DNA of 64,000 nt from Candidatus Spongiisociaceae bacterium (lineage in GTDB: Bacteria; Actinomycetota; Acidimicrobiia; Spongiisociales; Spongiisociaceae): positions 512,001 to 576,000 of the forward strand of contig CBDCOH010000002.1 in assembly GCA_965219685.1 (NCBI GenBank), read 5' to 3'. The position numbers were made by a program, and so were the translations under genes. The notes under the pieces were generated by a model. That model was not told where the DNA came from. It made no database searches and was given only the letters and a program-made list of their open reading frames with translations. Numbering within the stretch: position 1 is the first letter of the stretch; each line of letters starts with the position of its first letter. Of the stretch, positions 8,994-64,000 are shown one piece after another.

Positions 8994-10403
8994 GTGAGGG
9001 AAGGCGGTATTCGAGGCCGACTTCGACAGGACATGCCGGTCCGGGTCGCCGGAGGCGCGGCGGTCGCGGCTCTTCTGGCCGGCTCGTGGTGGGAACTGCT
9101 GTTCCTCCCCTTGGGCGCCAGTCACGATGGTCGGATCAACGCACGGTTCGGTCTGCACGTCCGGAACTTCCTGGAGCACGGGTTGGCGAACTCCGACTAC
9201 CTGGCGTCCATGGAGCCGTTCGCGACGACTCCGTACACCCATCACCCTCCCCTTCTCAACGTGCTCCACGCGGTGGTCGGATCGACGCTCGGGCAGGGCG
9301 AATGGCAATTGCACACCATCGGCTACCTGGCCGGCCTGGGAACCGTGGGCGGGCTCTTCTGGCTGGCTCGCGAACTCGACCTGGGGCCGTGGTCCTCGGT
9401 GGCGGCCGTGGCATTCGTGGCGTCGACTCCGATGTTCTGGATCTACGGGCGTCTGGGGCTCGGCATATCGATCGTGCTGCCGCTCCTGGCCCTCTGGCAG
9501 CGGTATCACAGGCTGGGTCGGGGATACCGGGCGCTTCTGATCGCCTCGGGTCTGGCAGCCTTCTCATCCTGGGTCGGGGCCGCCCTCGCTGTCCTCCTCT
9601 CCGGTATGAGCATGAGGGAAGGCGGGCGCCGGAAGGCAGGTGCGGCGGTGGGTGCGGTAGGTGTCTCCACCGCCCTGGCTGTTCTGGTCTGGGTGGCGTG
9701 GGCGGGCGATGTGACCGAGGTGGCGCAGCACACCCTGTCCCGGCTCCGATGGCCCTCGCTGTCGGCCCTATCGGACAACTATCTGTGGTTCTACCGGACG
9801 CTGTTTCCCTGGTGGTTCCGCTGGCTGATTCTCCCGGCGATCGCGATGGCCCTCATCGATCGCCGGACCCGGCCAGCCGCCGGCTCGATCACCGCGGCTC
9901 TCACGGTGTGGACGCTTATCACCCCCGACGCCGCCTATATTCACGACTTCTGGACGTATCCGCTCCTCCTTCCCGTATTCCTCGGCCTGGCGGTGATAGC
10001 GGATCACATGGAACGAAGGTTGGAGGGCAGGCGGATCGCGGTCGGGGCGGGCGTCGCCCTGGTGTTGCTGGTTGCGGTGGGCTTCGCCCGTCTTCCGCCT
10101 TACCGCGACGCCTACTTCCGGGCGCCGTCGGATGCCGGTGCTCTCGTCCGGGAGACGGGTCCGCCGCCCTGGCAGAGAACCGCCTGGTTGGCGGAGGGAG
10201 TGGACCCGATTCCGTACTGGGTGAGCTACTACTGGAATCTCCCCACCACCGAGGTAACCGTGGCTGACCTGGGCGTCATGGGAGAACACGACCTGGTCAT
10301 GGTCCGTCTCGACCGGTTGCCGTCCTGGGTGGGGTCGGTCCCGGATCCGGTGGCATCGAGGGGACGCTATGGCCTGGTGAGGGTCGCCGCACTGCCGCCG
10401 TAG
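8994..10403 (+). CDS. GT-C fold (ArnT/PMT-like) membrane glycosyltransferase
   Basis: LGASHDGRIN, YTHHPPLL, many TM helices; paralog of 40780..42396. Confidence 0.75.
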   Translation: MREGGIRGRLRQDMPVRVAGGAAVAALLAGSWWELLFLPLGASHDGRINARFGLHVRNFLEHGLANSDYLASMEPFATTPYTHHPPLLNVLHAVVGSTLGQGEWQLHTIGYLAGLGTVGGLFWLARELDLGPWSSVAAVAFVASTPMFWIYGRLGLGISIVLPLLALWQRYHRLGRGYRALLIASGLAAFSSWVGAALAVLLSGMSMREGGRRKAGAAVGAVGVSTALAVLVWVAWAGDVTEVAQHTLSRLRWPSLSALSDNYLWFYRTLFPWWFRWLILPAIAMALIDRRTRPAAGSITAALTVWTLITPDAAYIHDFWTYPLLLPVFLGLAVIADHMERRLEGRRIAVGAGVALVLLVAVGFARLPPYRDAYFRAPSDAGALVRETGPPPWQRTAWLAEGVDPIPYWVSYYWNLPTTEVTVADLGVMGEHDLVMVRLDRLPSWVGSVPDPVASRGRYGLVRVAALPP

Positions 10404-10479
10404 GAGTGAGGCTTATATGAAGATACTGTTATCATTCGGCGGATAGTGTAACGTATTGCATACAATGCTAGTGACTTCC

Positions 10480-48167: not shown

Positions 48168-49088
48168 ATGCGCATATCGATCATGTTCGGTTCTGACGCC
48201 CTGGGAATCCTTCGGCCCCCCGACCAAGTGGCAGAGGACGCAGTCGCAGCCGAGAAGGAAGGCTTCGCCTCGGCTTGGTGCACGCACATCACCCGCGGGA
48301 TCGACTCCCTCACCACGCTGGCGGTCGCCGCCCGGGCCACGTCGCGGATCGAACTCGGGGTCGGCGTGGTGCCCAGCTACCCGCGCCATCCGATGGCTCT
48401 GGCCCAGTCCGCCGCCACGCTCCAGGCGCTGGCAGGAGGACGGTTCGTCCTGGGAGTGGGGGTGTCCCACCGCCCGGTGATCGAGGGGATGCACGGGCTC
48501 GACTACTCCAGCCAGATAGGTCACCTGCGCGAGTACCTGACGGTCCTGAACGGCTTGCTGACCGACGGCTCTGTCAGCTTCGAGGGGGAGCACTACCGGG
48601 TACATGGTGAGTTCACGGTTCCGGGAACCTCCGCGGTGCCGGTGATAGTGGGCGCTCTCGCAGAGCGGATGTGCCGGCTGGGGGGCGAGATGGCCGACGG
48701 TGTGACCACCTGGCTGGCAGGTCCGAAGTCGCTCGAGGAGGTGGTGGTCCCCGCGGTCACCGATGGGGCCGAGGAAGCCGGGAAGCCCCCACCTAGGGTG
48801 CTGGCCGGGATTCCGGTGGCGGTCGATCCGGACCCCGACCGGGCACACGAGGCGACCGCCCGGGTGTTCGGTCGCTACGGCATGCTCGTCAACTACCGCC
48901 GACTCTTCGAGCGGGAGGGTGTAGACGGACCGGTTGGCCTGGCGATCACCGGGAACGCGAGCACCGTTACGGCCCGCATACAGGATCTCTTCGATGCCGG
49001 CGCCACCGACGTGTGGGCCGTGCCCTTCGACACGGGATGTGGTACCGGCGCAACCAGGGAGCTCCTACTCGACCTAGCAAGGTCGTGA
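48168..49088 (+). CDS. LLM-class F420-dependent oxidoreductase
   Basis: ATSRIELGVGVVPSYPRHP, GRFVLGVGVSH, LREYLTVL, ADG. Confidence 0.88.
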   Translation: MRISIMFGSDALGILRPPDQVAEDAVAAEKEGFASAWCTHITRGIDSLTTLAVAARATSRIELGVGVVPSYPRHPMALAQSAATLQALAGGRFVLGVGVSHRPVIEGMHGLDYSSQIGHLREYLTVLNGLLTDGSVSFEGEHYRVHGEFTVPGTSAVPVIVGALAERMCRLGGEMADGVTTWLAGPKSLEEVVVPAVTDGAEEAGKPPPRVLAGIPVAVDPDPDRAHEATARVFGRYGMLVNYRRLFEREGVDGPVGLAITGNASTVTARIQDLFDAGATDVWAVPFDTGCGTGATRELLLDLARS

Positions 49089-49213
49089 GTGGTGAGTGGT
49101 GAGTGGTGAGTGGTGAGTTGTGAATGGTGAGTGGCGAGTAGTGACTTAGACTACCACAACCAACAACTAACAACTAACAACTAACAACTAACAACTAACA
49201 ACTAACAACTAAC
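49085..49213. repeat. Heptamer array pair: GTGAGTG x~9 and CAACTAA x8
   Basis: Lies between convergent stops (LLM ARS*, comA EEWC*); each arm starts at a stop codon. Confidence 0.95.
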
Positions 49214-50042
49214 ACCATTCCTCCGGCTCGGGCCGATCGATCTCCAGGACCTTCTGCTCCTCCAAACGGGCCGTGACGGATCTCAGCGTCTCGTAACGCA
49301 GCCCGGAACGCAACGCTTCCAGCGCCAGGACCCGTTCCGGGGCGATGTTCCCGAGGCTCACGTTCATGCCGAAGCGGTCGATCAGCGTGGTCTGCTGTTC
49401 CTTGAGCGGCGCCTCCCAGACCAGCCGGTGGTTGGCCTCGCCGATACGGGCCGCGACGGTCTCCACCGCCTCGAGGTCGACGTGGCCGGCGGTGTCGTAC
49501 ACGCCGACTCCCGTTCCCGACTCGCGTCCTTCCATTACCACCCACGATGAGCCCCACTCGAGATCGCTCAGCACCTGGGAGGCCAGGTCGTCGGGATCGG
49601 GCTGGGTCTCCGGGTCCTTCTTGCCCACCTCGCTGATCACGATCAGGTCGGCGCTGAGACCGCATTCGATAGCCCGCCTCCGCCGTTCGGGGGGTAGGTC
49701 GAAGGTGCCCTCCGAAATCTCGACGGCGGTGAAGCCCATGCGGCGGGCGGCGCGCATGTAGTGCCGGCAGTGCCGGTGGGCGGTGGCGGCCTCGAATAGG
49801 GTTCCACCGGGGAAGGTGAGGGTTCCGGTTGAGTTGATCAGTTCCAGCTTCTTCCGCAGGACGGGCTCTGGTACCAGTGCCGAAGTGCCGAAGCTGAGCT
49901 TCCAGTGGTCGATCCACTGGCCGGCCATGTCCAGGAGTTCCGCGGTCTGCGACAAGCCGAGACCGGTGTCGATCACCATGGTGATGCCACGGGCGCGTGG
50001 CTTCCCGGTCCGGCCGGTGCGTACCTCCTCGGCGACGGCCAA
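49209..50042 (-). CDS. comA: Phosphosulfolactate synthase (CoM biosynthesis, ComA/XcbB)
   Basis: KPRARGITMVIDTG, KLSFGTS, GGTLFE, VEISEG, SEVGKK, EGRESG, WEAP, NVSLGNI, LEALRSGLR. Confidence 0.93.
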   Translation of the reverse strand: MAVAEEVRTGRTGKPRARGITMVIDTGLGLSQTAELLDMAGQWIDHWKLSFGTSALVPEPVLRKKLELINSTGTLTFPGGTLFEAATAHRHCRHYMRAARRMGFTAVEISEGTFDLPPERRRRAIECGLSADLIVISEVGKKDPETQPDPDDLASQVLSDLEWGSSWVVMEGRESGTGVGVYDTAGHVDLEAVETVAARIGEANHRLVWEAPLKEQQTTLIDRFGMNVSLGNIAPERVLALEALRSGLRYETLRSVTARLEEQKVLEIDRPEPEEWC

Positions 50043-50071
50043 GTCGTACCAGCCGGGCCGGTCCCCGGGGT

Positions 50072-51753
<1,682 letters not shown>

Positions 51754-51953
51754 TTATCGACCGAGAACTCCCGACGGTCGTCTCAGGGTGGGCGCCGTAC
51801 GAGCCTCATCCCACACCGGCGTGCCTCTGGTATCTGTCAGCCATGGATTGTACCCGAACGACCGGTGAGGACTGCCCGCTCCCGGCCCTTAGGCCCGTGC
51901 TGTCGGTTCCACTCCCTTCCTCGCCGGTTGTCTGACAAGTAAGGTAGGTAGGG

Positions 51954-52358
51954 ATGTATATGAACCTCACCACGCTGGCGATCGCCCTCTCACCGACCAC
52001 GATCATGGTCGCGTTTATCATTTTCGGGTTGCGAAGCCTTCGCAACGACCTGAATATGGGGTTGGCGCGGTTGGACAGCAGGATGGACCGGTTGGACAGC
52101 AGGATGGACCGGTTCGACAAGAGGATGGGCCGGTTCGACGGGCGGATGGACCGGTTCGAGAACAGACTGAACGGGTTCGACGACAAGATCGACGAGGACC
52201 GGGAGGGAAACCGCAGATCTTTCGAGAAACTGTTCGGGATGGTAGGCGAACTCTCAGAGCGGGTCGCCAGGATCGAGGGCTACCTGAGCGCCCTGCCGTT
52301 CGTCTCCGGCGCCGAGATCGCCTCCAACGTGCCTCAAGAGCCGACCCCGATCAGGTGA
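51954..52358 (+). CDS. Small TM-anchored coiled-coil repeat protein
   Basis: N-terminal TM segment, 21-bp repeats encoding RLDSRMD/RFDKRMG, C-terminal ERVARIEG. Confidence 0.7.
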   Translation: MYMNLTTLAIALSPTTIMVAFIIFGLRSLRNDLNMGLARLDSRMDRLDSRMDRFDKRMGRFDGRMDRFENRLNGFDDKIDEDREGNRRSFEKLFGMVGELSERVARIEGYLSALPFVSGAEIASNVPQEPTPIR

Positions 52359-52438
52359 TCAGGCCCTCTCGGCAGAGGGGCTATCCACCCGGACCCGCCG
52401 CCTCGGGGCAGCTTCGTAGGCGCTAGGGCGAAGCCCGT

Positions 52439-52484
52439 AACCATTCACGATTCACCATTCACGATTCACCACTCACCACTCACC
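52439..52484. repeat. Heptamer array (AYTCACS x6)
   Basis: Begins at the stop codon of the acyl-CoA ligase (GG-TGA GTGGTGA GTGGTGA ATCGTGA... on the minus strand). Confidence 0.9.
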
Positions 52485-54519
52485 CGCCTACGTACACCTT
52501 CCAGTCCACGGCCACTGCTTCGGACTCCGTGACCATCACCGGGTTCAGGTCGATCTCGCCGATATCCGGGCAGGTTGCCATCAGGCGGCCGACCGCGGTG
52601 ATGGCATCGGCCAACCCCTCGATGCTGGCGCGCGGCGCTCCCCGGTAACCGCACAGCAGCGGGAACCCCTGCAGCCGCTCTATCATCCCCACCGCTTCTT
52701 CGATGGTCACGGGCGCCAGGGCGAAGGTCACGTCCTCGAGCAGTTCCACCACGGTCCCGCCCAGCCCGGTCATAACTACCGGTCCGAATGCCGGATCCCT
52801 CAGCCCGCCGACCACCATCTCGACGCCGGTCAGTTGCGGCTGCACCAGTACCGCAGTTCCCAGACGGGAGAGGTCTCGGTACGCGTCGGCGACCTCCTCG
52901 AGGGTGGCGAGGCCGACGTGGACTCCGCCGACGTCGGCTCGATGCTCGATGGAGGGCTCGGCGGTCTTCACCACCACCGCTCCGCCGGCCTCCGCCGCCG
53001 CAGATAGTGCTTCGTTCTCGTCGTGGCAGATCCGGCTCTCCACGGTGCTGATCCCGAATTCCGAGAGGAGAGCAGCAGCCTGCGCAGGCGGGACCGGCCC
53101 GGCGGGAAGTTCCAGCCGCCTGCGAGGGGGCAGCTCCGGGCGGGGGATGATCCGGTGCCGGTTGGTGGCGTATCGCACCGCGTGGCCGACTGACCGGGCG
53201 GTCGGTTCCGGCCACTCGAGGCACGGGATCCCGGCTGCCTGAAGAACGTCGGCTTTGAACCTCTCCGCGCGCGGGGCGACCCAGCAGCAGTAGACCGGTA
53301 CCGCATTCCCGTCGTCCCGCAGGTCGGCGACGGTGTTGCGGACACCGGTCACCGTGGCTTCGTCCATCGCTGCTCTCTGCAGGAGTACCGGGATGACCAG
53401 GTCCACCTCGCCGGACCGTGCGAGGGTGTCGACCAGCCACGGGTAGAGCTCCGCGAACCGCGGCCAGATCGGGGTGATGTCGACCGGATTGCGGGGACTT
53501 GCGAATGGGGGGATCCGGTCCGCTATCCGCGCCTGCAGGCGGGCCGACAGTTCCGGCACCTCAACCCCTTCGGCTGCCAGGATGTCCACGAGTTCCACAC
53601 CGGTCCCGCCCGAGTTGGTGATGATCGCAGCCCGGTTACCTCCCGGCAGGGGCTGGCCGGCCAGCAGGCGGGCCACGTCGAGCATCTCCAGGCCGGTACG
53701 AACGGTTACGGCGCCCGCCTGGCGCATGGCGGCCCGGAAGATCGCATCGTCGGTCCCGAGCGAGCCCGTGTGGGACCGGGCCGCCCGGGCTCCCGCCTCC
53801 GAGCGACCGGTCTTGGCGACGATGACCGGCGTGGTGGGGGCCGCTTCGCGGATCGCAGCCGCAAGCTCGGCGCCGTCGGTCACCGACTCGGCGAGCAGGC
53901 AGATGATGTTCGTGTCAGGGTCGGTATGGAGGTATCTGATCGCCTCGTGGTCCCCGATGTCGGCCTTGTTCCCCGACGAGTACACCTTGCCGAAACGCAG
54001 GTGCTCGTCCGGGGCCATAGCGTGGATAGCCATCCCGTACGCACCCGACTGGGTGATCAGGGCGATCCCTCCCGGTTCGTGGGAACCGGCGGCCGTCATC
54101 GAGGCGTTGAGACCCACGGCCATGTTCTGGACTCCGAAGCAGTTGGGGCCGACGATCCGCACCGGGCCTGCCGCCTCCACCAACTCGGCCTGGAGAGCGG
54201 TCCCCTCCTCGCCGATCTCGGCGAACCCGCCGGCCAGAACCACTATTGCCCCGACCCCCTTCACCGCGGCCTGGCGGGCGACTGTCGGCGTCGCGCGTGC
54301 AGGTACGACCAGCACCGCCAGGTCGACATCTCCATCGACCTCGGTCAGGGACCGCGCCGCCGGAACACCACCCACCGAAGGTGACGAGGAGGTGACCGGG
54401 ACGACCTCGCCGTCGAAGTCCGCGAGGTTGCGCCACACGACGGTACCCACCTTTCCGGGGCGATCCGAGGCGCCTACGACCGCCACACGGGCCGGATTGA
54501 ACACCGCGTCGAGGGTCAA
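52480..54519 (-). CDS. Acetate/acyl-CoA ligase (ADP-forming), fused alpha-beta
   Basis: VAVVGASDRPGKVG, VGPNCFG, TQSGA, AARSHTGSL, NSGGTG, NPVD, ATP-grasp DPAFGPVVMTGLGG, EIDLNP. Confidence 0.9.
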   Translation of the reverse strand: MTLDAVFNPARVAVVGASDRPGKVGTVVWRNLADFDGEVVPVTSSSPSVGGVPAARSLTEVDGDVDLAVLVVPARATPTVARQAAVKGVGAIVVLAGGFAEIGEEGTALQAELVEAAGPVRIVGPNCFGVQNMAVGLNASMTAAGSHEPGGIALITQSGAYGMAIHAMAPDEHLRFGKVYSSGNKADIGDHEAIRYLHTDPDTNIICLLAESVTDGAELAAAIREAAPTTPVIVAKTGRSEAGARAARSHTGSLGTDDAIFRAAMRQAGAVTVRTGLEMLDVARLLAGQPLPGGNRAAIITNSGGTGVELVDILAAEGVEVPELSARLQARIADRIPPFASPRNPVDITPIWPRFAELYPWLVDTLARSGEVDLVIPVLLQRAAMDEATVTGVRNTVADLRDDGNAVPVYCCWVAPRAERFKADVLQAAGIPCLEWPEPTARSVGHAVRYATNRHRIIPRPELPPRRRLELPAGPVPPAQAAALLSEFGISTVESRICHDENEALSAAAEAGGAVVVKTAEPSIEHRADVGGVHVGLATLEEVADAYRDLSRLGTAVLVQPQLTGVEMVVGGLRDPAFGPVVMTGLGGTVVELLEDVTFALAPVTIEEAVGMIERLQGFPLLCGYRGAPRASIEGLADAITAVGRLMATCPDIGEIDLNPVMVTESEAVAVDWKVYVGG

Positions 54520-55343
54520 GTAGTGAAGGTCCGTTCCAACTCGGAGGGCCGGAACTCCCCTCTGCGTACCCCGAGAGGGTCGATGGTTCGCACCAGGTCG
54601 ATCTGCTCCCGGCTCGGTGTGGCCACCGTCTCGAGGTCCGTAGCCACCTCGAAGCCGAAGCCGGTGGCCGCCGAGACGTCGTCGAGCGTGACGTCGGGGA
54701 ACAGCTTCCGGAGCCGGGCACGGCCGCCGGGGAAGTCGAACACCCCCAATTCGGTCACCAGGGTCTCGGGTCCACCTCCCGTGTAGCCCAGGTCGGCCCT
54801 CGTTCCCTCGGGTGTCCGGTGGCCGATGTCGGTGATGAAGTCACACGCCTCGACCAGGCAGCGGCCCGGTCGGTGGTTGGTGCTCCACAGGGTGAGTCGG
54901 CCGATGGTCGCCGATATGTTGCAGCCTCCGCCTCCGCCCCCCAGCTTCACCTTGGGGGTCGGCATCGAGCCGATCGAGGTGACGTTGGTGTTCCCGTAGG
55001 GGTCGATCTGGATGCCGGACAGGAACATGTGGTCGACCTCGCCCCGCACCGACATGTCGAACGCCTCAGCGAACCTCATCGAGTACACGGCGCCCTGCCT
55101 GAGGGAGTGGTCGTTGCTGGTGGGCGGGATGAAGGCCGGGGAGGGATTCACCGCGTACATGGCGCCCTCGATCAGCAGTGCCGAGGGGGCGTGGGTTCGC
55201 TTGGCCAGGTGCATGGCGACCGTGGCGCAAGGGCTCCCGAAGCCGTGGAAAGTGACCTCCCCGTCCCGGACAGTCCGGGCGAGTTCCACCACGAAGAACT
55301 CGTCGAAGCTGAACCGTTGGCTCACCCGAACAGGTCCATCCAT
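54516..55343 (-). CDS. Family I CoA-transferase beta subunit (GctB-like)
   Basis: QIDPYGNTN, GGGGG, DFITDIG, GGPETLVTELGVFDF. Confidence 0.88.
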   Translation of the reverse strand: MDGPVRVSQRFSFDEFFVVELARTVRDGEVTFHGFGSPCATVAMHLAKRTHAPSALLIEGAMYAVNPSPAFIPPTSNDHSLRQGAVYSMRFAEAFDMSVRGEVDHMFLSGIQIDPYGNTNVTSIGSMPTPKVKLGGGGGGCNISATIGRLTLWSTNHRPGRCLVEACDFITDIGHRTPEGTRADLGYTGGGPETLVTELGVFDFPGGRARLRKLFPDVTLDDVSAATGFGFEVATDLETVATPSREQIDLVRTIDPLGVRRGEFRPSELERTFTT

Positions 55344-56236
55344 TCCGCGGTGGAGGAGGAATACCGGGCGAGCCGGTCGAGGCGGTCGTACCCGACCCGG
55401 TCCCGGTAGGCGTCTTCATCGATCTCGGTAACGAAGGTCCGCAGGTACTCGTCGGCGCCCGAAGGGGTCTTGGCGGCGGCCACCCAGGCGGAGATGTGTT
55501 CGCGGTCGTACGCATACCCCGGGTAGCAGGAACTCGGATGGGCACCATACGGAACCTCCGCCACGGCCGCGACCCGGTAGAACGGGATCACGATGCCGGC
55601 CTCGGCGACCTCCCCGGTTGACGCTATCCGATCGACTGTCGCCACCACCATCTTCGAGGCCTTGGCGAAGTGCTCGTCGAGGACGTAGGGCTGTTCCAGG
55701 GCCAGGTTGCCTTCCCGGTCGCCCAGGGGCGCGTGGATGAGGGCCACGTCCGGCGCCATCGGCGGCACGGCTACGAAGGTGTTGCCGGTGAACGGGCAGG
55801 TGACCCTGCCGTACTCGGGATGGAGCGCCTCGATATCGGTCCCTTTCACTCCGTGGACCGGTAGGAAAGGTAGGGCCATCTCGGCGGCCCGGAGTTGGGT
55901 GAGGATGGTGTCGCAGCAACTCTCCCGGGCCTCGAGGGATCCCTCCTGAGCGGCTCTCCGGAAGGCGGGTGCCAATCCGTGGTCCTGCTCGTACCCGACG
56001 TAGCTCTCCTCGCAGACGGAGATCGATCCCGCCGCGGCCAGCAGGTCCACATCGATGGAATGGGCCGAACCCACCACATGGAGATCGCCGATCCCCATCC
56101 TGATCAACTGCCGCACGAGAGCCATGGGGAGCCGGGCGGAGAGTCCCCCTCCGAGCGCAACCATCGATCCCGGCTGGACCAACCGGGCGGCTTCCTCCAA
56201 TCCCGTGTACTTGTCCGGTGCGAGGTGTATGCCCAT
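55322..56236 (-). CDS. Family I CoA-transferase alpha subunit (GctA-like)
   Basis: VALGG..RLPMALVRQLIR, LPFLP, CPFTG, PDVALIH, PYGAHPSSC. Confidence 0.88.
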   Translation of the reverse strand: MGIHLAPDKYTGLEEAARLVQPGSMVALGGGLSARLPMALVRQLIRMGIGDLHVVGSAHSIDVDLLAAAGSISVCEESYVGYEQDHGLAPAFRRAAQEGSLEARESCCDTILTQLRAAEMALPFLPVHGVKGTDIEALHPEYGRVTCPFTGNTFVAVPPMAPDVALIHAPLGDREGNLALEQPYVLDEHFAKASKMVVATVDRIASTGEVAEAGIVIPFYRVAAVAEVPYGAHPSSCYPGYAYDREHISAWVAAAKTPSGADEYLRTFVTEIDEDAYRDRVGYDRLDRLARYSSSTAEWMDLFG

Positions 56237-56240
56237 CCGA

Positions 56241-57008
56241 CTACTGGGCGGTCATGCCGCCGTCGACGGTGAAGATGGAACCGGTGACGAAGCTCGCCTC
56301 GTCGGACGCGAGGAAGAGGGCGGCCCGGGCGATCTCGGACGGTTCGCCGATCCGTCCGATCGGGTACTTGGTGGCGGTCATGGCCAGCCCGCGTTCGAGA
56401 TCTCCCTGGCCCCGTTCCAGCATGAGGGGCTCCATCAGGGGGGTGTAGACGGTTCCGGGGCAGAGGGCGTTCACCCGTATCCCCAGCGGTGCCAGGTCGA
56501 CTGCCATGGATCGGGTCAGCGACACCACGGCGCCCTTGGCCGCGCAGTAGGCGGCGAACCCCTGGACTCCGACCAGCGCCGCCACCGACGCCTGGTTCAC
56601 GATCGAGCCTCCGCCGGCGGCCTCCAGATGGGGTATCGCGGCCCGGGAAACCAGGAAGGTTCCCTTCACGTTCACGTCGAAGCACCGGTCCCAGTTCTCC
56701 TCGGTGGCGCTCGCCACCGACCCCGAGGAGCCGACCCCGGCGTTGTTATAGACGATGTCCAGCCGACCCAGAGCGCGGGCTGCCGAGTCGACGGCTTGCG
56801 ATACCTGGGCATCCGACGACACGTCGGCGACGAAAGCCCGAGCGGTCCCGCCGGCGACGCGGATGGCGGAGGCGGTGGCCTCGGCAGCGTCGTGGTCGAT
56901 GTCCACGACGGCGACAACTGCTCCCTCACCGGCGAATACCTCGGCCGTCGCCCTCCCTATTCCGGAGCCGGCCCCGGTGATCAACGCGCTGCGCCCTGCA
57001 AGCCTCAT
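56241..57008 (-). CDS. SDR dehydrogenase, probable 2-(S)-hydroxypropyl-CoM dehydrogenase-like (XecE-like)
   Basis: TGAGSGIG, AAYCAAKGA, CPGTV, KYPIGR, DGGMTA, shared with S-HPCDH; CoM cluster context. Confidence 0.7.
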   Translation of the reverse strand: MRLAGRSALITGAGSGIGRATAEVFAGEGAVVAVVDIDHDAAEATASAIRVAGGTARAFVADVSSDAQVSQAVDSAARALGRLDIVYNNAGVGSSGSVASATEENWDRCFDVNVKGTFLVSRAAIPHLEAAGGGSIVNQASVAALVGVQGFAAYCAAKGAVVSLTRSMAVDLAPLGIRVNALCPGTVYTPLMEPLMLERGQGDLERGLAMTATKYPIGRIGEPSEIARAALFLASDEASFVTGSIFTVDGGMTAQ

Positions 57009-57076
57009 CTCCGTCCGATCCTAGGCATTCCAGGCCGGCAGGCATATTCTGGGGCCGGTTGTCGATGGAGGTGAGC

Positions 57077-57817
57077 ATGTCCGATGGTTCCGGAACGGTG
57101 GCGGTGGTGACCGGAGGCGGGTCCGGGATAGGTCGAGCGACCTGCGCCCGCCTTCGCCAGGAAGGATTCAGGCTAGGCGTGCTCGATCTCGATGCCGAGA
57201 GCGCCGCCGATTCGGCCGGGCGAGGCATCGGTCTCGGGGTCGACGTTTCGGATCCGGGGGCGGTGTCGGAGGCGTTCGCCACCATCGGGAAGGAACTGGG
57301 TCCGGTCGAGGTGCTGGTCAACAACGCCGGCATCACCGGCTCCGCAGCCGCGGGCCGGCTCCATGACACTCCGCTGGAGGAGTGGGACCGGGTGATGGCG
57401 GTCAACGTGAGGGGCGTCTACCTGTGTTCGCGGGCCGCCCTCGATTCGATGGTCCCGCGCCGGTCGGGGCATATCATCACGATCGCCTCGGTAGCGGGGA
57501 TGGTTCCATTCCCCGCCCGCTCGGTGTACTCGGTGTCCAAGGCCGCTGCTCTCCTGCTGGCCCGCTCCATCGCGGCCGACTACGCGGCCGACGGGATACG
57601 GTCGAATGCGATCTGTCCGGGCATGGCGGAGACTCCGATGACCAAGTGGCGGCTCGACCAGCCGGAGCTTCGAGCAGCGATCGAAGCCCGGATTCCCATA
57701 GGCAGGGTGGCCCAGCCGGAGGACATTGCCGATGCGGTAGTTCTCCTGGCCTCCGGCCGTCTCTCCTACATGACCGGACACGGCTTGGTCGTCGACGGTG
57801 GATGGACCGTCCGGTAG
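57077..57817 (+). CDS. xecD: 2-(R)-hydroxypropyl-CoM dehydrogenase
   Basis: NNAGITG..LHDTP, FPARSVYSVSK, CPGMAETPMTKWRLDQPELR; both sulfonate-binding Arg positions of R-HPCDH are retained. Confidence 0.85.
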   Translation: MSDGSGTVAVVTGGGSGIGRATCARLRQEGFRLGVLDLDAESAADSAGRGIGLGVDVSDPGAVSEAFATIGKELGPVEVLVNNAGITGSAAAGRLHDTPLEEWDRVMAVNVRGVYLCSRAALDSMVPRRSGHIITIASVAGMVPFPARSVYSVSKAAALLLARSIAADYAADGIRSNAICPGMAETPMTKWRLDQPELRAAIEARIPIGRVAQPEDIADAVVLLASGRLSYMTGHGLVVDGGWTVR

Positions 57818-58171
57818 GGAGGTCCGCGAACACCAACTGCCGGGGAGGAGTCGCGACGGGCAATCCCCGTTAACGGATCAAGCCCTCCAACCGATCCCAC
57901 AGCCTCAATGTCTGCTTGCCCGAACAGACCTTTTGCGCATCTCTAACCCGCCTGTGAAAAGCCATATGGCGCGGACGGCAGCATTGGCCGGGATGACGGC
58001 GGTTGTCCAGCTTCGGAGGACGATTCCGGCCAGGGCACATCTCCGGTTTGGTAGCCTGAAGCCGCCGACAGCGTCGCGGGCCACGTAAGACGAGCCGCCG
58101 TGAGGAGGTATGGAGGAAACCAAAGCCCGGCCGCTGTCTACCCGATGCTTGCTTCGAGAGATGGAGGAGAC

Positions 58172-59278
58172 ATGCAGATCAAGGGTGAAGAGGTACTGAT
58201 CCCGACCTCGATGGTGGGGAACTATCCCAACCCGCGCTGGTGGGATGCCCAATGCGTACGCGAGTGGACCGGAGACCAGGAGCCGCCCGACGCCTTTATC
58301 CGGGAGGCCTTGGAGGACGCAGCGGCTGCGCTGGCCAAGGACCAGGAGAACGCCGGTCTCGACATCATCACCGACGGTCGTCTCCACGGTGACAACTACG
58401 CGGACCAGGCCCTCTACTACTACTACAAACGTCTCGGCTACGACCTCAAGGGTGGCTTCCTTGGGTTCCCGATCTACAGCCGGCTCCATGCCGGGACTCT
58501 CACCCAGGAGGTGAAGCGGCGGGGCGCCATCATGGTGGAGCAGGCCAGGGCGCTGAAGCGGGCCACCAACAAGGCCACCAAGGTCCAGTACACCGGGATC
58601 CAGGTGTTGGCCCAGGCCACCAACGACCTCCACTACGAGGCCGCCGAGGACCGGGCAATGGCGATCGCCGACGCCGTCAACGAGGACATCCTCGAAGTGG
58701 ACGCCATGGGGATCGACTTCATCCAGTTGGACGAGTTCACCTGGCCGTACTTCTACGAGCCCTGGGCCATCGAGGCCTTCAACCGGGCTGTGGCGGGCGT
58801 CCAGAACGCCAAGATCATCGTCCACATCTGCTGGGGGAACTGGGGCGGAACTCCCGCCTACTTCCCCGACGACACGGCGGGGGCGGGAGAGATCTTCGAC
58901 CTGACCATCCGTGAAGGCGATGAGCCATCGGCGACCGCCTCGGTGATCCCGGCCTCTTACGACGCCAACATCGACGTTCTCAACCTGGAGAACTGCGGTA
59001 GGCGCTCGGATGACCTGTCCGGTCTCGAGGTCGTGAGGAACAACCCGGTGCCCGAGAACGTCCAGTTCTGGGCGGGGGTGATCGACGTCAAGTCGACGAT
59101 CACCGAGACCGCCGAACAGGTGGCGGGGCGGATCCGCAGGTTGCTCGAGTACGTGCCCGCCGACCAGTTGGGCGTCACCACCGACTGCGGCCTGATCCTG
59201 CTGCAACGCTACATCGCGCAGGACAAGCTGCACGCGATGGTGTCCGGAGCGGAGCTCGTTCGCAGCGAACTCGGCTGA
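58172..59278 (+). CDS. etnE: Epoxyalkane:coenzyme M transferase (EaCoMT; MetE-like Zn enzyme)
   Basis: PTSMVGNYPNPRWWD, DGRLHGDNYADQ, FPIYSRLHAG, HICWGN, TDCGL; GGAG RBS before ATG 58172. Confidence 0.92.
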   Translation: MQIKGEEVLIPTSMVGNYPNPRWWDAQCVREWTGDQEPPDAFIREALEDAAAALAKDQENAGLDIITDGRLHGDNYADQALYYYYKRLGYDLKGGFLGFPIYSRLHAGTLTQEVKRRGAIMVEQARALKRATNKATKVQYTGIQVLAQATNDLHYEAAEDRAMAIADAVNEDILEVDAMGIDFIQLDEFTWPYFYEPWAIEAFNRAVAGVQNAKIIVHICWGNWGGTPAYFPDDTAGAGEIFDLTIREGDEPSATASVIPASYDANIDVLNLENCGRRSDDLSGLEVVRNNPVPENVQFWAGVIDVKSTITETAEQVAGRIRRLLEYVPADQLGVTTDCGLILLQRYIAQDKLHAMVSGAELVRSELG

Positions 59279-59375
59279 CATCTCTTGAACGCGCAGGACC
59301 GTCCCTTAGCCGGGACGGTCCTGCCGTTTGCAGGTACAATCGCCATATGGACACGGCATCACGGATCGCATTGCC

Positions 59376-60287
59376 ATGGTTGTAGCCGAAACGCCGACCC
59401 CGAACGCCCGCGCCCACCCATACCGGGGGCTCTCGGTCCAGCATGTGGACCAGGTACCGGAGCCTGCGTTCATGGTCGATTACCTGATGGGCCGGGAGGT
59501 GTACCGCCGCACCGACTACCTGGCGCTCGTCCACGAGGGGTCGGTGGGGTTGGCGGCCGTGGCACGCCAGGAGAACGACGAACTGTTCCAGACCGTCGTG
59601 GACGTCGAGGTGTGGTCGGGCCCCGACCGGACGATGCTGATCGAGGATCCGGCGGTGGACGTAGGGAACGCCACCGCGCTCGCCGGGGCCGCGGCTGGCC
59701 GGGGACGTCCCGGTATGTCGGGATTCGTGGTGAAGGGGATGTTCGAGCACATCAACTTCATCTGGGAACCCGACCCCGTCCGGATCCGGGTCACGGAGGT
59801 CACGCCCCCCGAGCCGCCCAAGTTGCTGCGCCAGGCCCAGCAGGTCGTCGACTTCGACGAGGATCTCCCCCCGGTGGAGTTGGTGCTCGACTCGGTCAAC
59901 TTCCCCGATCTCGCGGCCACGGTTCCCGCCGATTCCTACCTGCTTCCCTGCCGGGGAGCCGGGACGGAGCTTGACGGTGACATGTCGTACCTGGACACCC
60001 GGCCGGCGACACGCGAGGAGTGGGTGATGATCGGATGCGAGCGATCCATGCAGTTCCACCGCCACTTCTACGGCGACGAGCCTCGCCAGGTCGACATATG
60101 TCCCCGCAAGCGGGTGGAGAAGGAAGCCTCCGGAGATCGATGGCTGGTCAAATGCTGCATGCTGGAGCGAGGCATGGAGTTCGCCGACAACCGCGCAATA
60201 GTGCCCTGGGGAGCGAATCTTGATGAGGTACGGCACGCGCTCCGTCTTCTGACCGGAGTGGAGGCCGTGGCTCCCGTTCCGGGATGA
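59376..60287 (+). CDS. Cys-rich hypothetical protein, candidate XcbA (CoM biosynthesis)
   Basis: LLPC, IGCERS, DICP, KCCMLE, VPWGA; lies between EaCoMT and the xcbD/E/C-like genes with an ATGA overlap. Confidence 0.6.
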   Translation: MVVAETPTPNARAHPYRGLSVQHVDQVPEPAFMVDYLMGREVYRRTDYLALVHEGSVGLAAVARQENDELFQTVVDVEVWSGPDRTMLIEDPAVDVGNATALAGAAAGRGRPGMSGFVVKGMFEHINFIWEPDPVRIRVTEVTPPEPPKLLRQAQQVVDFDEDLPPVELVLDSVNFPDLAATVPADSYLLPCRGAGTELDGDMSYLDTRPATREEWVMIGCERSMQFHRHFYGDEPRQVDICPRKRVEKEASGDRWLVKCCMLERGMEFADNRAIVPWGANLDEVRHALRLLTGVEAVAPVPG

Positions 60288-61630
60288 GCATCCACCTAGC
60301 CGACTCGGTCGTATACGGCCATCTGTGGGCCACCGACGAGGTGAGGGCGATCCTGGGAGATGAGGCCCGGTTCCGAGCCTGGTTGGACATCCTGGCCACG
60401 CTCGCCGAAGCCCAGGCCGAGGTCGGACTGGTCCCCGAGTCCGCCGCGGCGCTCATAAGGGAACATGCTCGGACCGCCGAGATCGACCTCGAACGGATAG
60501 GGGCGGAGACCAGGGCCACCGGCCACTCAACCCTGGGGCTGATCCGGGTCCTGCGCGCCACGCTGCCCGAGCCGGCCCGCGAGTGGGTCTACTACGGCGC
60601 CACCGTCCAGGACCTTACGGATACGTGGACCTCCACCGTCATGCGATCGGTGGGCGACCTGCTGGAGCGGGACCTGGCTCGCATCGAAGCGGCTGCCGTG
60701 GCTCTCGCCCGGGACCACCGGAACACCCCGATGATGGGCCGCACCCATGCCCAGCCGGCCATCCCGATCCCGTTCGGATTCAAGGCCGCGGTCTGGGCCT
60801 CGGAGATCGCTCGTCACCGCCGCCGGCTCGAGGCAGGGCGGGAGCGCTGGGAAGTGGTGCAGTTGGGCGGGGCGCTGGGAACGATGGAGTTCTGGGGCGA
60901 CCGTGCGCTGCCGTTGCTCGACGAGTTCGCACGCCGCATGGGCCTCGGCGTTCCATCGATACCTTGGATAACCAGCCGGGACGGCCCCGCCGAGTTCACC
61001 CATCTGCTCGCCATGACGGCAACCACCATCGCCAAGGTCGGCAACGAGATCATGGAGCTGCAGAGGCTCGAGTTGGGCGAGGTACGGGAACCGTTCATCG
61101 AGGGAACGGTCGGGAGCATCACCATGCCCCAGAAGCGCAACCCGGAACTGTCGGAGCACCTGGACACCCTCGCCCGACTCGTACGGGCGGACGCCGGGGT
61201 GGTTACGGAGGCGATGATCCAACTACACGAGCGGGACGGGCGGAGCTGGAAGGCCGAGTGGATCGCGATCCCGGAAGCCTGCGCCATGACCCTTTCCGCC
61301 ACCCGCTACGCAGCGGTCCTGGTGGAGGGCCTGGAGGTGGAAGCCGGCCGGATGATGGCCAACATCGAGGCGCGGAAGGGGTACGTGTTCGCGGAGCCGG
61401 TGATGCGATATCTCGCCGATCGGGTCGGCAAGCACACGGCGCATGACATCGTGTACGACGCCGCCATGCGGGGATTCGAGCAGGGTCTTACCTTCGCCGA
61501 GGCGATCCTGGGCGATCCGCGGGTCCCCGCCTACCTGGACCGGCGACGGATCGACGAGTTGGCCGACATCGATCGGGTGATGGGCGCCGGGCCGGAGTTC
61601 GTCGACCGGGTCGTTCGGGAAGCGGATTGA
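60284..61630 (+). CDS. Adenylosuccinate-lyase-like aspartase/fumarase-superfamily enzyme (XcbD-like)
   Basis: YGATVQD, GRTHAQPA, QLGGALG, GSITMPQKRNPE, HERDG. Confidence 0.82.
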   Translation: MSIHLADSVVYGHLWATDEVRAILGDEARFRAWLDILATLAEAQAEVGLVPESAAALIREHARTAEIDLERIGAETRATGHSTLGLIRVLRATLPEPAREWVYYGATVQDLTDTWTSTVMRSVGDLLERDLARIEAAAVALARDHRNTPMMGRTHAQPAIPIPFGFKAAVWASEIARHRRRLEAGRERWEVVQLGGALGTMEFWGDRALPLLDEFARRMGLGVPSIPWITSRDGPAEFTHLLAMTATTIAKVGNEIMELQRLELGEVREPFIEGTVGSITMPQKRNPELSEHLDTLARLVRADAGVVTEAMIQLHERDGRSWKAEWIAIPEACAMTLSATRYAAVLVEGLEVEAGRMMANIEARKGYVFAEPVMRYLADRVGKHTAHDIVYDAAMRGFEQGLTFAEAILGDPRVPAYLDRRRIDELADIDRVMGAGPEFVDRVVREAD

Positions 61631-62574
61631 AGCTTCCTTACAGAGCGCCGCTGGCCAACCTGCCCACGCCCCTGGTGGCTGCCCCGCGCCTGTCCGAGGA
61701 GATCGGCGTCGAGGTCCTACTGAAGCGGGATGACCTGACCGGCGTAGGTCTCGGAGGCAACAAGGCGCGGGCGGTCGAGTTCCACGTCGGAGCCGCGGAA
61801 GTTGCAGCAACCGATGTTTTCCTGACCGGAGGTGGACCCAGATCCAATTGGGTACTGACCGCCGCATCGGGCGCCGTCCAGCGGGGCTTGGCGGTTGAAC
61901 TGGTGATGTTCGGGGATCGGCCCCCGCCGGGCCGGGGGAGCCTCGACCTGCTGGATCGGTTGGAAGGAGTGAGGGTGACCTTCACGGGCAATCCGGCTCG
62001 TCTATCGGTCGATCCCGTCCTGGAGTCCCTGTTCGAACGGCTAGGGGATGCGGGGCGCCGGCCGTATGCGGTGGGCCGGGGCGGAGCGGACCCGGTCGGC
62101 GCCCTCGGCTACCTGGCGGCGGTGGATGAACTCGAGATGCAGCTGGAACGGATGGGGATGGCCGCGGGTACCGTCTGGCTGGCAACCGGGTCGTGCGGTA
62201 CCCAGGCCGGACTGGTAGCGGGCTACCGGAGGCGTTCCATGGCACCCCGCATTGTCGGGGTGTCCGTGCATCGCCCCGTCGACGAATGCAGGCGGCGGAT
62301 CCGGAGGATCTCCGATTCGACCCTGGACATGCTTGCTGTCCAGGAGCGGAACGAGGTCGCTTGGGAGGTGCTCGACGAGCGTGAACCCGATCCCGCGGAG
62401 GTCGAGAAGGCCGCATCGCTCATGGCCAGGACCGAAGGAGTGTTCCTGGATCCCGAGTACGGGTCTCCGGCTCTCGCGGCGCTCGTCAGGGAGAAGTCCG
62501 GCCTGGCTCATCCGATCGTGTTCCTGGTGACCGGTGGAACCCTCAACCTGTTCCTAGGGAGTTCGGCGGCGTGA
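61627..62574 (+). CDS. PLP-dependent D-cysteine desulfhydrase/ACC-deaminase family enzyme (XcbE-like)
   Basis: LPTPL, KRDDLTGVGLGGNKAR, GSCGTQAGL, TEGVFLDPEY, TGG. Confidence 0.85.
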   Translation: MKLPYRAPLANLPTPLVAAPRLSEEIGVEVLLKRDDLTGVGLGGNKARAVEFHVGAAEVAATDVFLTGGGPRSNWVLTAASGAVQRGLAVELVMFGDRPPPGRGSLDLLDRLEGVRVTFTGNPARLSVDPVLESLFERLGDAGRRPYAVGRGGADPVGALGYLAAVDELEMQLERMGMAAGTVWLATGSCGTQAGLVAGYRRRSMAPRIVGVSVHRPVDECRRRIRRISDSTLDMLAVQERNEVAWEVLDEREPDPAEVEKAASLMARTEGVFLDPEYGSPALAALVREKSGLAHPIVFLVTGGTLNLFLGSSAA

Positions 62575-64000
62575 GCGCGCGGCCGGAGGAGGAACTAGGG
62601 GCGGAGGTAGACCGCCTCCTGGCGGTGATCGAGGGCGGCGTGTTCGGGGGCGCCGATCCGGCGACCGCGGCCGCCATCGAGGCTCCCGAGGGATACCTCG
62701 GGGCGGAGGGGCGATTGGGGTCAGGTCCATCTCCGGCCCTGGTCGACGCCGGCTACCGCTTGGAAGTGGCAGATGCCCGTATCCTTCACGAGGGTTTGTG
62801 TCTGGCCGACCTCGCCCACGTTCTGGAACTGGTGGATGCGGAGGTCGCCCCGAGGAGGGCGGCGGCCCGGTTGTGCCGCGTGCTTCTCGATTTCCTCTCC
62901 ACCCCGGTGGAGTCCTTCCCCTACGACCCCTTGTACGGCGATGCGTACAACAGCCGGGAACGGGAGCTGGAACGCCGGATCGGTGCGGCCGCAGGATGGC
63001 TCCCGACCGGGCGCACCCGTCGCGAGGCAGGACGCCTCGCGATCCGCCTCGCCCTCCGCAGCCGCATCCTTGATCTTCACACGGCGGTCGCGGGCCTTGC
63101 CACCAGGCTCGTGCAGAGGGCGCTGGAATTGGCGTCCGTCCCGTGGAACGACACCACATACCTGCAACCTGCCCAGCCTTCCTCGTTCGGCTACTACCTG
63201 GCCGGCTTCGCCGAACAGGCCATTCGGGACCTCCAACGTGTCCGGAGTTGCCACCGGTGGGCGAACCTCTCGCCGGGCGGTTCCGGTGGCGTGGGTGGGA
63301 CTTCCATCCCCCTGAGCCGGGGGAGGATCTCGGACCGGCTGGGATTCCGCCGGCCGACACGCCACATCCGCGACGGCATGTGGTCGGCCGACGGGATGGT
63401 CGATTGCACGGTCGCCGCGACCCAGGCGGTCATGAACGCCGACCGCCTCGCCGAGGACCTCGAGGTGTTCGCCACGCCCCAGTTCGGTTACGTAGCCCTG
63501 GGAGGTTCCTCGTCGAGGGCCTCGGTGTTGCTTCCCCAGAAGCGCAACCCGTACGCCTTGGCGGTGATCCGGGGAGGCTGCGGGACGCTGATCGGCAGAT
63601 CCACCGGTCTGATGAGCACGCAGCGGACCCCGTCGGCCCGAACCGACAACTGGCTCTACGCCTACGGCGAAGTCACCGGCTCCGTGGAGCTGGCGGGTTG
63701 CCTGTTGCGCTTGGCGGCCGATGTCGTCACGACCATGGAGGTCGACGTCGGGAGGTTGGCGGACTCTGCGGGCGACAACTTCACCACTGCCACCGACCTC
63801 ACCGAACTCCTGGTGCTCGAGCGCGGCCTGGACTACCGGAGCGCGTACCGCATCGTCGGGCGGGCGGTGGCGAACGTGTCCGAACGCGAGGGGACCAGGG
63901 TGGCCGCCGTGGACCTGGAACGGGCGGCGGGGGAGTGCGGGATCGATCTCTCCGGTCTCTCCTCGGCGGTCGAGCGGGCGGGCGATGTCGACGCCCTCAT
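62571..64000 (+). CDS. Argininosuccinate-lyase-like enzyme (XcbC-like), partial; runs off window
   Basis: Own translation from GTG 62571 shows no stop: GLCLADLAH, YGDAYNSRE, GRTRRE, TYLQPAQP, SRASVLLPQKRNPY, RSAYRIVGRAV. Confidence 0.82.
   Translation, partial: MSARPEEELGAEVDRLLAVIEGGVFGGADPATAAAIEAPEGYLGAEGRLGSGPSPALVDAGYRLEVADARILHEGLCLADLAHVLELVDAEVAPRRAAARLCRVLLDFLSTPVESFPYDPLYGDAYNSRERELERRIGAAAGWLPTGRTRREAGRLAIRLALRSRILDLHTAVAGLATRLVQRALELASVPWNDTTYLQPAQPSSFGYYLAGFAEQAIRDLQRVRSCHRWANLSPGGSGGVGGTSIPLSRGRISDRLGFRRPTRHIRDGMWSADGMVDCTVAATQAVMNADRLAEDLEVFATPQFGYVALGGSSSRASVLLPQKRNPYALAVIRGGCGTLIGRSTGLMSTQRTPSARTDNWLYAYGEVTGSVELAGCLLRLAADVVTTMEVDVGRLADSAGDNFTTATDLTELLVLERGLDYRSAYRIVGRAVANVSEREGTRVAAVDLERAAGECGIDLSGLSSAVERAGDVDAL

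Follow-up and report, generated by a model that had tools for sequence, protein, structure and literature searches.

The 64,000 nucleotides analysed here (hereafter the window; positions 512001-576000 of contig C2 in the host genome, G000) carry at one end a gene cluster for the synthesis of coenzyme M (CoM) and for the CoM-dependent conversion of epoxides. The host belongs to the GTDB family Spongiisociaceae, and its genome of 4.42 Mb consists of two contigs, C2 (4,390,481 bp, 65.3% GC) and C1 (30,458 bp, 59.2% GC). According to the original prediction, made from the window, a monooxygenase was missing and the lineage may draw its epoxides from another source. The absence was confirmed for the window and for 18 kb beyond it. 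It does not extend to the genome. An operon for a six-component soluble di-iron monooxygenase (SDIMO) was located at C2:4,002,017-4,008,751, 3.43 Mb away from the cluster on the same contig, and the premise that no alkene monooxygenase was encoded elsewhere had to be given up. We consider it probable that both loci together represent a split but otherwise conventional pathway from alkene to epoxide to CoM chemistry in sponge-symbiont Acidimicrobiia, with the CoM genes kept as an intact, vertically inherited module.

In such a pathway the genome's own SDIMO would supply the epoxide. By homology to Xanthobacter Py2, the epoxyalkane:CoM transferase (EaCoMT) would open the epoxide with the thiol of CoM, an R-type and an S-type short-chain dehydrogenase/reductase (SDR) would oxidise the resulting hydroxyalkyl-CoM to the ketone, and the 2-ketopropyl-CoM oxidoreductase/carboxylase (2-KPCC) would cleave and carboxylate 2-ketopropyl-CoM to acetoacetate and free CoM. 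XcbB/ComA, XcbC, XcbD, XcbE and XcbA would, judged by family membership, build CoM from phosphoenolpyruvate, sulfite and cysteine. A coenzyme A (CoA)-transferase and/or an ADP-forming ligase may activate the acid product; this is suggested only by their place in actinobacterial etn clusters. The pathway may serve growth on marine alkenes or epoxide detoxification.

Genes were assigned from a listing of open reading frames (ORFs) and from scans against Pfam, NCBIfam and PDB sequences, and every gene of the original prediction was found at about the position given there. None of the NCBIfam models names EaCoMT, 2-KPCC or an SDIMO alpha subunit. The EaCoMT gene (58172..59278, plus strand; PF01717 68 bits, cut-off 21) encodes a XecA-type protein which is 77.0% identical to the 2-hydroxypropyl-CoM lyase XecA of Py2, 47.4% to the Nocardioides JS614 and 44.7% to the Mycolicibacterium chubuense NBB4 enzyme, and about 31% to methionine synthases. 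In a tree it was placed inside the EaCoMT clade, which was split from two MetE-like outgroups with 100/100 support. Thus, by identity and by phylogeny the protein groups with EtnE/XecA, as had been supposed. H218, C220 and C339, which we take to be the zinc-binding His-X-Cys ... Cys motif, are invariant in all ten aligned sequences, including that of Xanthobacter. From its sequence, the enzyme would be expected to add CoM to short-chain epoxides.

The two SDR genes are divergently oriented. The product of the first (57059..57817, plus strand) is of the R-hydroxypropyl-CoM dehydrogenase (R-HPCDH) type. Its best PDB match was 2CFC (227.6 bits; next 164 bits), it is 49% identical to Py2 XecD, and S142, Y155, K159, R152 and R196 are kept. 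Presumably the Ser-Tyr-Lys set is the SDR catalytic triad and R152 and R196 are the sulfonate-binding arginines of R-HPCDH. The arginine pair is absent from the second SDR (56241..57008, minus strand) and from the SDR of NBB4. This second protein is S-HPCDH-like, with 4GH5/4ITU as best PDB match (207 bits), of which we take 4GH5 to be S-HPCDH. Its identity to the SDR of the NBB4 etn cluster, 64%, exceeds that to Py2 XecE (49-52%).

The 2-KPCC gene (xecC-like; 50072..51654, minus strand) is split in the window by a single-base defect, which is dealt with below; restored, its product has about 527 residues. It matched PDB 1MO9 with 614.8 bits, the next match to a different protein being 87 bits, and shares 65% identity with XecC in its C-terminal part. 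Pyr_redox_2 and Pyr_redox_dim domains are present. In an alignment with Py2 XecC, R56, C82, C87, H137, M140, M361, R365, F501 and H506 are all kept. C82 and C87, within the motif CPHNAC, presumably form the redox-active CXXXXC; Phe501 and His506 presumably stand in for the usual His-Glu dyad; R56, R365, M140 and M361 are assumed to bind CoM.

For CoM synthesis, comA/xcbB (49209..50075, minus strand) encodes a phosphosulfolactate synthase for the first step (PF02679 265 bits; TIGR03849 301.5 bits, cut-off 280), which shares 55% identity with its Py2 and 38% with its NBB4 counterpart. The gene begins with a GTG at 50075, in a 4-nt overlap with the stop of 2-KPCC; alternatively, the start is a TTG at 50042. 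The other genes form a run on the plus strand: xcbA (59328..60287; last, reductive step of CoM synthesis; DUF7714 277 bits, NF052538 377 bits, cut-off 150), xcbD (60284..61630; 3-sulfopropionylcysteine synthase; NF052536 668 bits, cut-off 600), an xcbE-like gene for a pyridoxal phosphate enzyme (61627..62574; XcbE was the best NCBIfam match with 207.7 bits, cut-off 450; CuyA 178 bits) and an xcbC-like gene of the aspartase/fumarase family (62571..64000, ending 172 nt past the window; NF052535 395.5 bits, cut-off 575; ArgH 208.6 bits). Thus XcbA, ComA and XcbD pass the NCBIfam cut-offs; the XcbE-like and XcbC-like proteins fall below theirs, yet have XcbE and XcbC as best matches, are of full length and stand in the expected place. 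With the 172 nt included the XcbC-like protein has 533 residues. Overlaps of 4 nt at xcbA/xcbD and at xcbD/xcbE agree with the translational coupling originally proposed for the run. The start of xcbC is less certain and perhaps lies later than 62571: three more start codons follow downstream, and the alignment with the g7 and g3 proteins begins only at about residue 36 (g1 to g7 denote the genera of the family). XcbD is 59% identical to NBB4 and 45% to Py2 (58-61% across actinobacterial etn clusters), the XcbE-like protein 43% and 37%, and the XcbC-like protein 53% and 38-39%, respectively.

The carboxylation genes are accompanied by two overlapping genes for CoA-transferase subunits on the minus strand, B-like (54516..55343; PF01144) and A-like (55322..56236; PF01144, 89 bits), which are 62% and 64% identical to the NBB4 etn-cluster copies. 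An ADP-forming acyl-CoA ligase of the acetate--CoA ligase family follows (52480..54519, minus strand; CoA_binding_2, Succ_CoA_lig and ATP-grasp_5). Among the compared regions it matched only the NBB4 etn cluster, with 41% identity, and it scored below every NCBIfam equivalog cut-off. As transcribed, the minus strand reads SDR, two CoA-transferase genes, ligase, a gap of 1.17 kb, 2-KPCC and comA. Divergent from this SDR the plus-strand run reads R-HPCDH-type SDR, EaCoMT, xcbA, xcbD, xcbE-like and xcbC-like. The cluster is a mosaic. For EaCoMT, 2-KPCC, ComA and the R-type SDR the closest counterparts are in the Xanthobacter propylene system, and those of the CoA-transferase, the S-type SDR and XcbA/D/E/C are in the actinobacterial ethene (etn) clusters.

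Next, the monooxygenase. A search of the whole genome with PF02332 gave two matches on C2, both in the operon named above; if the contig is circular the distance to the CoM cluster shrinks to about 0.95 Mb. The operon comprises, in order, a DJ-1/PfpI gene, two SnoaL-like genes, alpha (502 residues), gamma (about 89 residues), an MmoB/DmpM coupling protein, beta (341 residues), a Rieske ferredoxin and a FAD-dependent ferredoxin reductase. The domains seen were PF02332 twice, PF02406, PF00355 and Pyr_redox_2 plus Reductase_C. The gamma gene (at about 10958-11227, minus strand, of locus L005) encodes a protein 57% identical to a TmoB-family protein. The alpha subunit scored 556 bits with ToMO TouA, 535 with T4MO TmoA, 153 with phenol hydroxylase and about 59 with sMMO. 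It is 67% identical to the product of a Rhodococcus koreensis plasmid gene with the same DJ-1/NTF2/NTF2 surroundings; identity is about 50% with the toluene types, 47.7% with XamoA and 47.6% with a protein annotated as IsoA. When 20 alpha subunits were placed in a tree, the sequences from g1, g3, the R. koreensis plasmid and the alphaproteobacterial locus L084 formed a clade (96/99 support), separate from XamoA plus IsoA (100/100) and from the toluene/dioxane types.

The operon thus has the same six component types as the four-component TMO group (ToMO, T4MO, XamoABCDEF, IsoABCDEF), to whose plasmid-borne members its alpha subunit is 47-50% identical. It differs in being a separate clade, in the DJ-1/PfpI and two SnoaL-like genes which are always upstream, in a Rieske gene placed after beta, and in a reductase of the Pyr_redox_2 plus Reductase_C kind (HcaD/AndAa-like, about 300 bits) instead of the FNR type. 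The resulting order, alpha-gamma-coupling-beta-Rieske-reductase, deviates from the canonical alpha-gamma-ferredoxin-coupling-beta-reductase which Yang et al. 2025 (PMC11825192) give for their 'group 1', the equivalent of the TMO group.

Upstream of alpha, the DJ-1/PfpI gene (glyoxalase III-like) and the two SnoaL/NTF2-like genes were seen in five genomes of three phyla (L005 12746-14751, that is G000:C2:4,006,746-4,008,751; L006 9971-11977; L084 5432-7346; L135 10673-12616; L136 3334-5279). Limonene epoxide hydrolase has an NTF2-like fold. On this ground the SnoaL/NTF2-like and DJ-1 products might process the epoxide or its products.

How are the two loci distributed in the family? EaCoMT was present in 16 of 24 other genomes, i.e. 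in all seven of g1, both of g3 and seven of eight of g7, and in none of the seven from g2, g4, g5 and g6. It was absent from all 16 genomes examined from other families of the order. The gene order of the cluster is conserved across g1, g3 and g7 with local rearrangements. In the g7 genome G019, 2-KPCC and ComA are encoded elsewhere, about 0.6 Mb from the rest of the cluster. In G005 and G006, ComA is about 0.5 Mb away and xcbC was not found beside xcbE; G006 has 2-KPCC about 18 kb upstream of EaCoMT. G020, the sole g7 genome without EaCoMT, is also without 2-KPCC and ComA. The cluster genes behave as one inherited and retained module. The SDIMO was found in six of seven other g1 genomes and in both g3 genomes, all of which carry EaCoMT.

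Here we examined whether SDIMO and EaCoMT genes are physically linked in other organisms. Eighty EaCoMT loci were taken with up to 10 kb on each side. Only one, L084 from an alphaproteobacterial metagenome-assembled genome (MAG), had an SDIMO within the flanks. There the SDIMO is divergent and about 830 nt from a row of EaCoMT-2KPCC-SDR-SDR-CoAT-CoAT-xcbA-comA-xcbC-xcbD (CoAT, CoA-transferase). Compared with G000, its alpha subunit is 66.7%, beta 50%, DJ-1 55% and the SnoaL-like proteins 47-50% identical. The alpha query was then run on the genomes behind 50 of the 53 EaCoMT loci from outside the family (L110-L112 were left out). An SDIMO-alpha match was obtained in 21; with this query none was obtained in the other 29. 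An alpha subunit of the present clade was found in three of the 50: G065 (the genome of L084; 67%), G079 (65%) and G082 (61-66%, in pieces). In G079, a Chloroflexota MAG, EaCoMT and the complete operon from DJ-1 to reductase are 12.8 kb apart on one contig; in G082 the two are on different contigs. It is chiefly because of physical linkage to EaCoMT in two unrelated phyla that we think the epoxide is probably supplied by this SDIMO. The alpha gene of G079 (G079:C208:9114-10613) has an internal TAA, and those of G082 (G082:C10:5362-6858) and G051 (G051:C14:245762-247247) are in pieces; such defects could reflect real decay or, as in the window, faulty assembly.

The original prediction had singled out that EaCoMT is followed by CoM-synthesis genes without an adjacent monooxygenase. 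This arrangement turned out to be common. It applies to 79 of the 80 EaCoMT loci and also to a second copy of the pathway in Py2 (Xaut_5047-5055; EaCoMT, 2-KPCC, SDR, SDR, xcbA-E), which has no monooxygenase beside it and lies at pXAUT01 266,692-277,080 (L125), about 190 kb from xamoABCDEF.

Several observations weigh against assigning the SDIMO and the CoM cluster to one pathway. In the host and in every Spongiisociaceae genome examined the two are unlinked. The R. koreensis plasmid, which carries the closest plasmid-borne copy of the operon (67%), gave no EaCoMT match, a search restricted to the plasmid. A conserved operator shared by the regions upstream of the SDIMO and CoM loci was not detected; two 11-mers common to the short SDR/SDR intergenic region and to the region upstream of the DJ-1/SDIMO operon are regarded as chance occurrences, because they are not conserved in five to six relatives. 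By identity the clade is no closer to the alkene enzymes XamoA and IsoA than to the toluene types, and none of its members has a known substrate. The low NCBIfam scores of the XcbE-like and XcbC-like proteins also belong here. A further point is g7, labelled Ca. Spongiisocius. Seven of its eight genomes have EaCoMT and none of the eight the SDIMO; the genomes are 95-97% complete, three of them in one or two contigs. Because g7 keeps the pathway under these circumstances, the CoM pathway can persist without this SDIMO.

These data lead to the best-surviving alternative, namely that the host makes no epoxides. The CoM module would then scavenge or detoxify epoxides from the sponge, from other symbionts or from halohydrin/haloperoxidase chemistry, and the SDIMO would serve other substrates, e.g. 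aromatics. The g7 genomes are in its favour, even G019 with its dispersed genes having retained 2-KPCC and ComA, as are the 29 of 50 EaCoMT-bearing genomes from outside the family without an SDIMO-alpha match and the missing linkage in the host. A precedent exists as well. In methanotrophs, according to PMC11507031, a CoM epoxide cluster occurs in genomes without an alkene monooxygenase, where co-oxidation by pMMO gives the epoxide and the role of the cluster is detoxification. There, however, the cell itself still makes the epoxide, with a monooxygenase of its own. Moreover, an SDIMO is present in the host, in nearly all other g1 genomes and in both g3 genomes, and its clade adjoins or is near EaCoMT in two other phyla. 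For the present genome we therefore consider an exclusively external supply unlikely, and the proposal of epoxides from another source was not upheld. For g7 it is a live idea.

Other oxygenases were considered as well. P450 matches, six in G000 and two in each of four other genomes (three g7, one g3), are possible but unspecific epoxide sources. PF02461, the copper membrane monooxygenase family of the pMMO type, gave no match in five genomes; the control genomes were silent too, so this result is uninformative.

Both ideas might hold side by side, a new type of alkene monooxygenase feeding the CoM pathway and, in g7, use of CoM on epoxides from outside. We advance this combination tentatively. 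Its first part is that the SDIMO clade marked by DJ-1 and SnoaL genes may represent alkene monooxygenases of a type not recognised so far, occurring in Acidimicrobiia, Alphaproteobacteria and Chloroflexota at least. The second is that the g7 symbionts may live on, or defend themselves against, epoxides from the sponge, neighbouring symbionts or halogenating chemistry.

How does the proposed split pathway relate to known systems? The chemistry in Xanthobacter Py2 and the bacterial CoM pathway are laid out in PMC9457059, and that CoM pathway is the one encoded here. The xec/xcb genes on the Py2 plasmid pXAUT01 encode the same four catalytic types. The differences are that the present genes are on an acidimicrobial chromosome; that their order is xcbA-D-E-C with comA beside 2-KPCC; that the Xcb proteins are only 37-45% identical; that CoA-transferase and ADP-forming ligase have been added, neither of which occurs in the compared Py2 propylene cluster regions; and that the monooxygenase is of another clade than xamoABCDEF, with another gene order and another type of reductase. 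The actinobacterial etn clusters (NBB4 plasmid pMYCCH.02, Nocardioides JS614) share the trio of two CoA-transferase genes and ligase, an SDR and the comA/xcbA-D-E-C set, with xcbA-D-E-C in the same order; identities range from 41% to 64%. Here the dissimilarities are that EtnE is only 45-47% identical to the present EaCoMT, that the group-4 genes etnABCD directly follow etnE (the NBB4 alpha subunit is 25.5% identical to that of G000) and that the annotated NBB4 region is without a second SDR of the R-HPCDH type.

In the methanotroph Methylohalobius crimeensis (PMC11507031), too, genes for SDR, CoA-transferase, NDP-forming acyl-CoA synthetase and CoM synthesis occur together, EtnE is also 77% identical to that of Py2, and no alkene monooxygenase is beside the cluster. 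The last step of CoM synthesis there is attributed to a sulfoacetaldehyde dehydrogenase that is not related to XcbA, in contrast to XcbA here; its epoxide comes from pMMO, as opposed to the TMO-group SDIMO of the present genome. Lateral spread of the methanotroph cluster across phyla has been proposed (PMC11507031). A preprint on Desulfobacterota reports archaeal-type CoM genes without epoxide enzymes. Nothing linking sponge Acidimicrobiia with CoM came up in the literature searched, a search which did not include the description paper of Ca. Spongiisocius. Within these bounds the expectation that CoM biology extends to a new group was borne out, and the host lineage, the mosaic make-up of the cluster and the candidate monooxygenase clade are new.

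The mosaic raises the question of substrate. Possibly the module is mainly for C2 epoxides, i.e. epoxyethane and chlorinated ones, in an etn-like manner; the work would fall to CoA-transferase and ligase, with the 2-KPCC homologue acting as a reductase instead of a carboxylase. The identities to NBB4 etn proteins agree with this (CoA-transferase 62-64%, S-type SDR 64%, XcbA/D/C 53-59%), and so does the lack of CoA-transferase and ligase in the compared Py2 regions. Yet EaCoMT (77%), 2-KPCC (65% over the C-terminal part, with all nine presumed active-site and CoM-binding residues kept, F501 and H506 among them) and ComA (55%) belong with the Xanthobacter propylene enzymes, and a separate R-HPCDH-type SDR with both arginines makes sense only for a chiral substrate of C3 or larger. 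We regard a predominantly C2 function as improbable.

Finally, we return to 2-KPCC. In the window the gene is distributed over two frames, residues 1-71 being in the first, with one base missing near 51440. The frames abut at ...YMRAM|GGRQLII..., in agreement with XecC. In the loci of seven relatives which hold the gene, the corresponding parts are 303 or 300 nt apart, i.e. in frame; the distance here is 302 nt. Logan contigs of four sequencing runs were aligned to window positions 50000-52500. All four had one more C after 51440, supported by the entire depth (depth with this C over total depth: X1 38/38, X2 16.3/16.3, X5 16.7/16.7 and X6 2.2/2.2). X1 and X2 are from one sample, possibly the source of the assembly; X5 (a sponge metagenome) and X6 (a coral metagenome) are from other studies and represent related strains. 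With the base present in all four runs, we conclude that the break arose during assembly; the gene itself is intact. The notion that the pathway is decaying, with 2-KPCC a pseudogene in this strain, had only the one-nucleotide frameshift at about codon 71 to build on and, in view of these contigs and of the full length of every other cluster gene, can be practically dismissed. As this case shows, the loss of one base in assembly is enough to give a key gene the appearance of a dead one.

The surroundings of the cluster were inspected for further candidates. Scans of 27 other ORFs of the window and of 14 ORFs in the adjoining 18 kb gave no match to an oxygenase family. The gene next to comA (48168..49088, plus strand; PF00296; TIGR03564 288 bits, cut-off 234) had to be considered as a 'luciferase-like monooxygenase' (LLM); the TIGR03564 match identifies it as an F420-dependent oxidoreductase of the LLM class, which is no oxygenase. 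In G002, G005, G009, G014 and G021 it adjoins comA or 2-KPCC, and on the comA side of the cluster it is a conserved neighbour throughout g1, g3 and g7 loci (e.g. L004 4827-6448). Two F420 genes, cofE and cofD, are located 5 kb beyond the xcbC end.

Between ligase and 2-KPCC the gap is about 1.17 kb here versus 67-484 nt in the seven relatives' loci with both genes (about 140 nt in G022). An ORF of 134 codons in this gap (51954..52358, plus strand) has a hydrophobic N-terminus and gave nothing above cut-off in the Pfam and NCBIfam scans. It sits in the insertion and is probably not part of the pathway. A heptamer-like repeat of ACCATTC/ACGATTC units is located just downstream of the ligase stop codon (52440-52484). 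Its summed contig depth in run X1 was 9577 versus about 38 in the flanks, and its first 20 nt occur 11 times on C2. It may be a dispersed genome repeat or a sequence common to other organisms of the sample.

In g7 loci a gene for a polytopic membrane protein of about 490-510 residues is inserted between the SDR genes (L024 ~10000-11571, plus; L028 9946-11418, plus; L025 7791-9329, minus); overall the inserted ORF has 490-630 residues. The copies of these three loci are 63-85% identical, have a DSDDGR motif after the first helix and match neither Pfam nor NCBIfam families; in L025 the gene is beside one for a family 2 glycosyltransferase (GT2). We considered an oxygenase and judged it to be an envelope gene instead; it may be GT-C-like. 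Contig C1, with a GC content of 59.2% versus 65.3% for the chromosome, may represent plasmid or phage DNA or a contaminant introduced by binning; genome contamination is given as 5.93%.

The family is filed by NCBI taxonomy under Actinomycetota; Acidimicrobiia; Ca. Spongiisociales, which agrees with the class suspected originally. Labelled runs outside the likely source sample which contained half or nearly half of the sampled sequence words were sponge, coral and marine metagenomes. Bacterial use of CoM has so far been tied to a few alkene-degrading isolates and lately to methanotrophs. Here the genes for the full pathway are a conserved chromosomal trait of a family of uncultured sponge symbionts. 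This points to a turnover of marine or host-derived alkenes and epoxides, such as ethene, propene and their relatives, inside sponges. The SDIMO clade is a testable candidate for a new clade of alkene monooxygenases. The sister genus g7 constitutes a natural experiment, the pathway without the oxygenase; if g7 does live on or defend itself against outside epoxides, this would be CoM-based cross-feeding or detoxification inside an animal holobiont.

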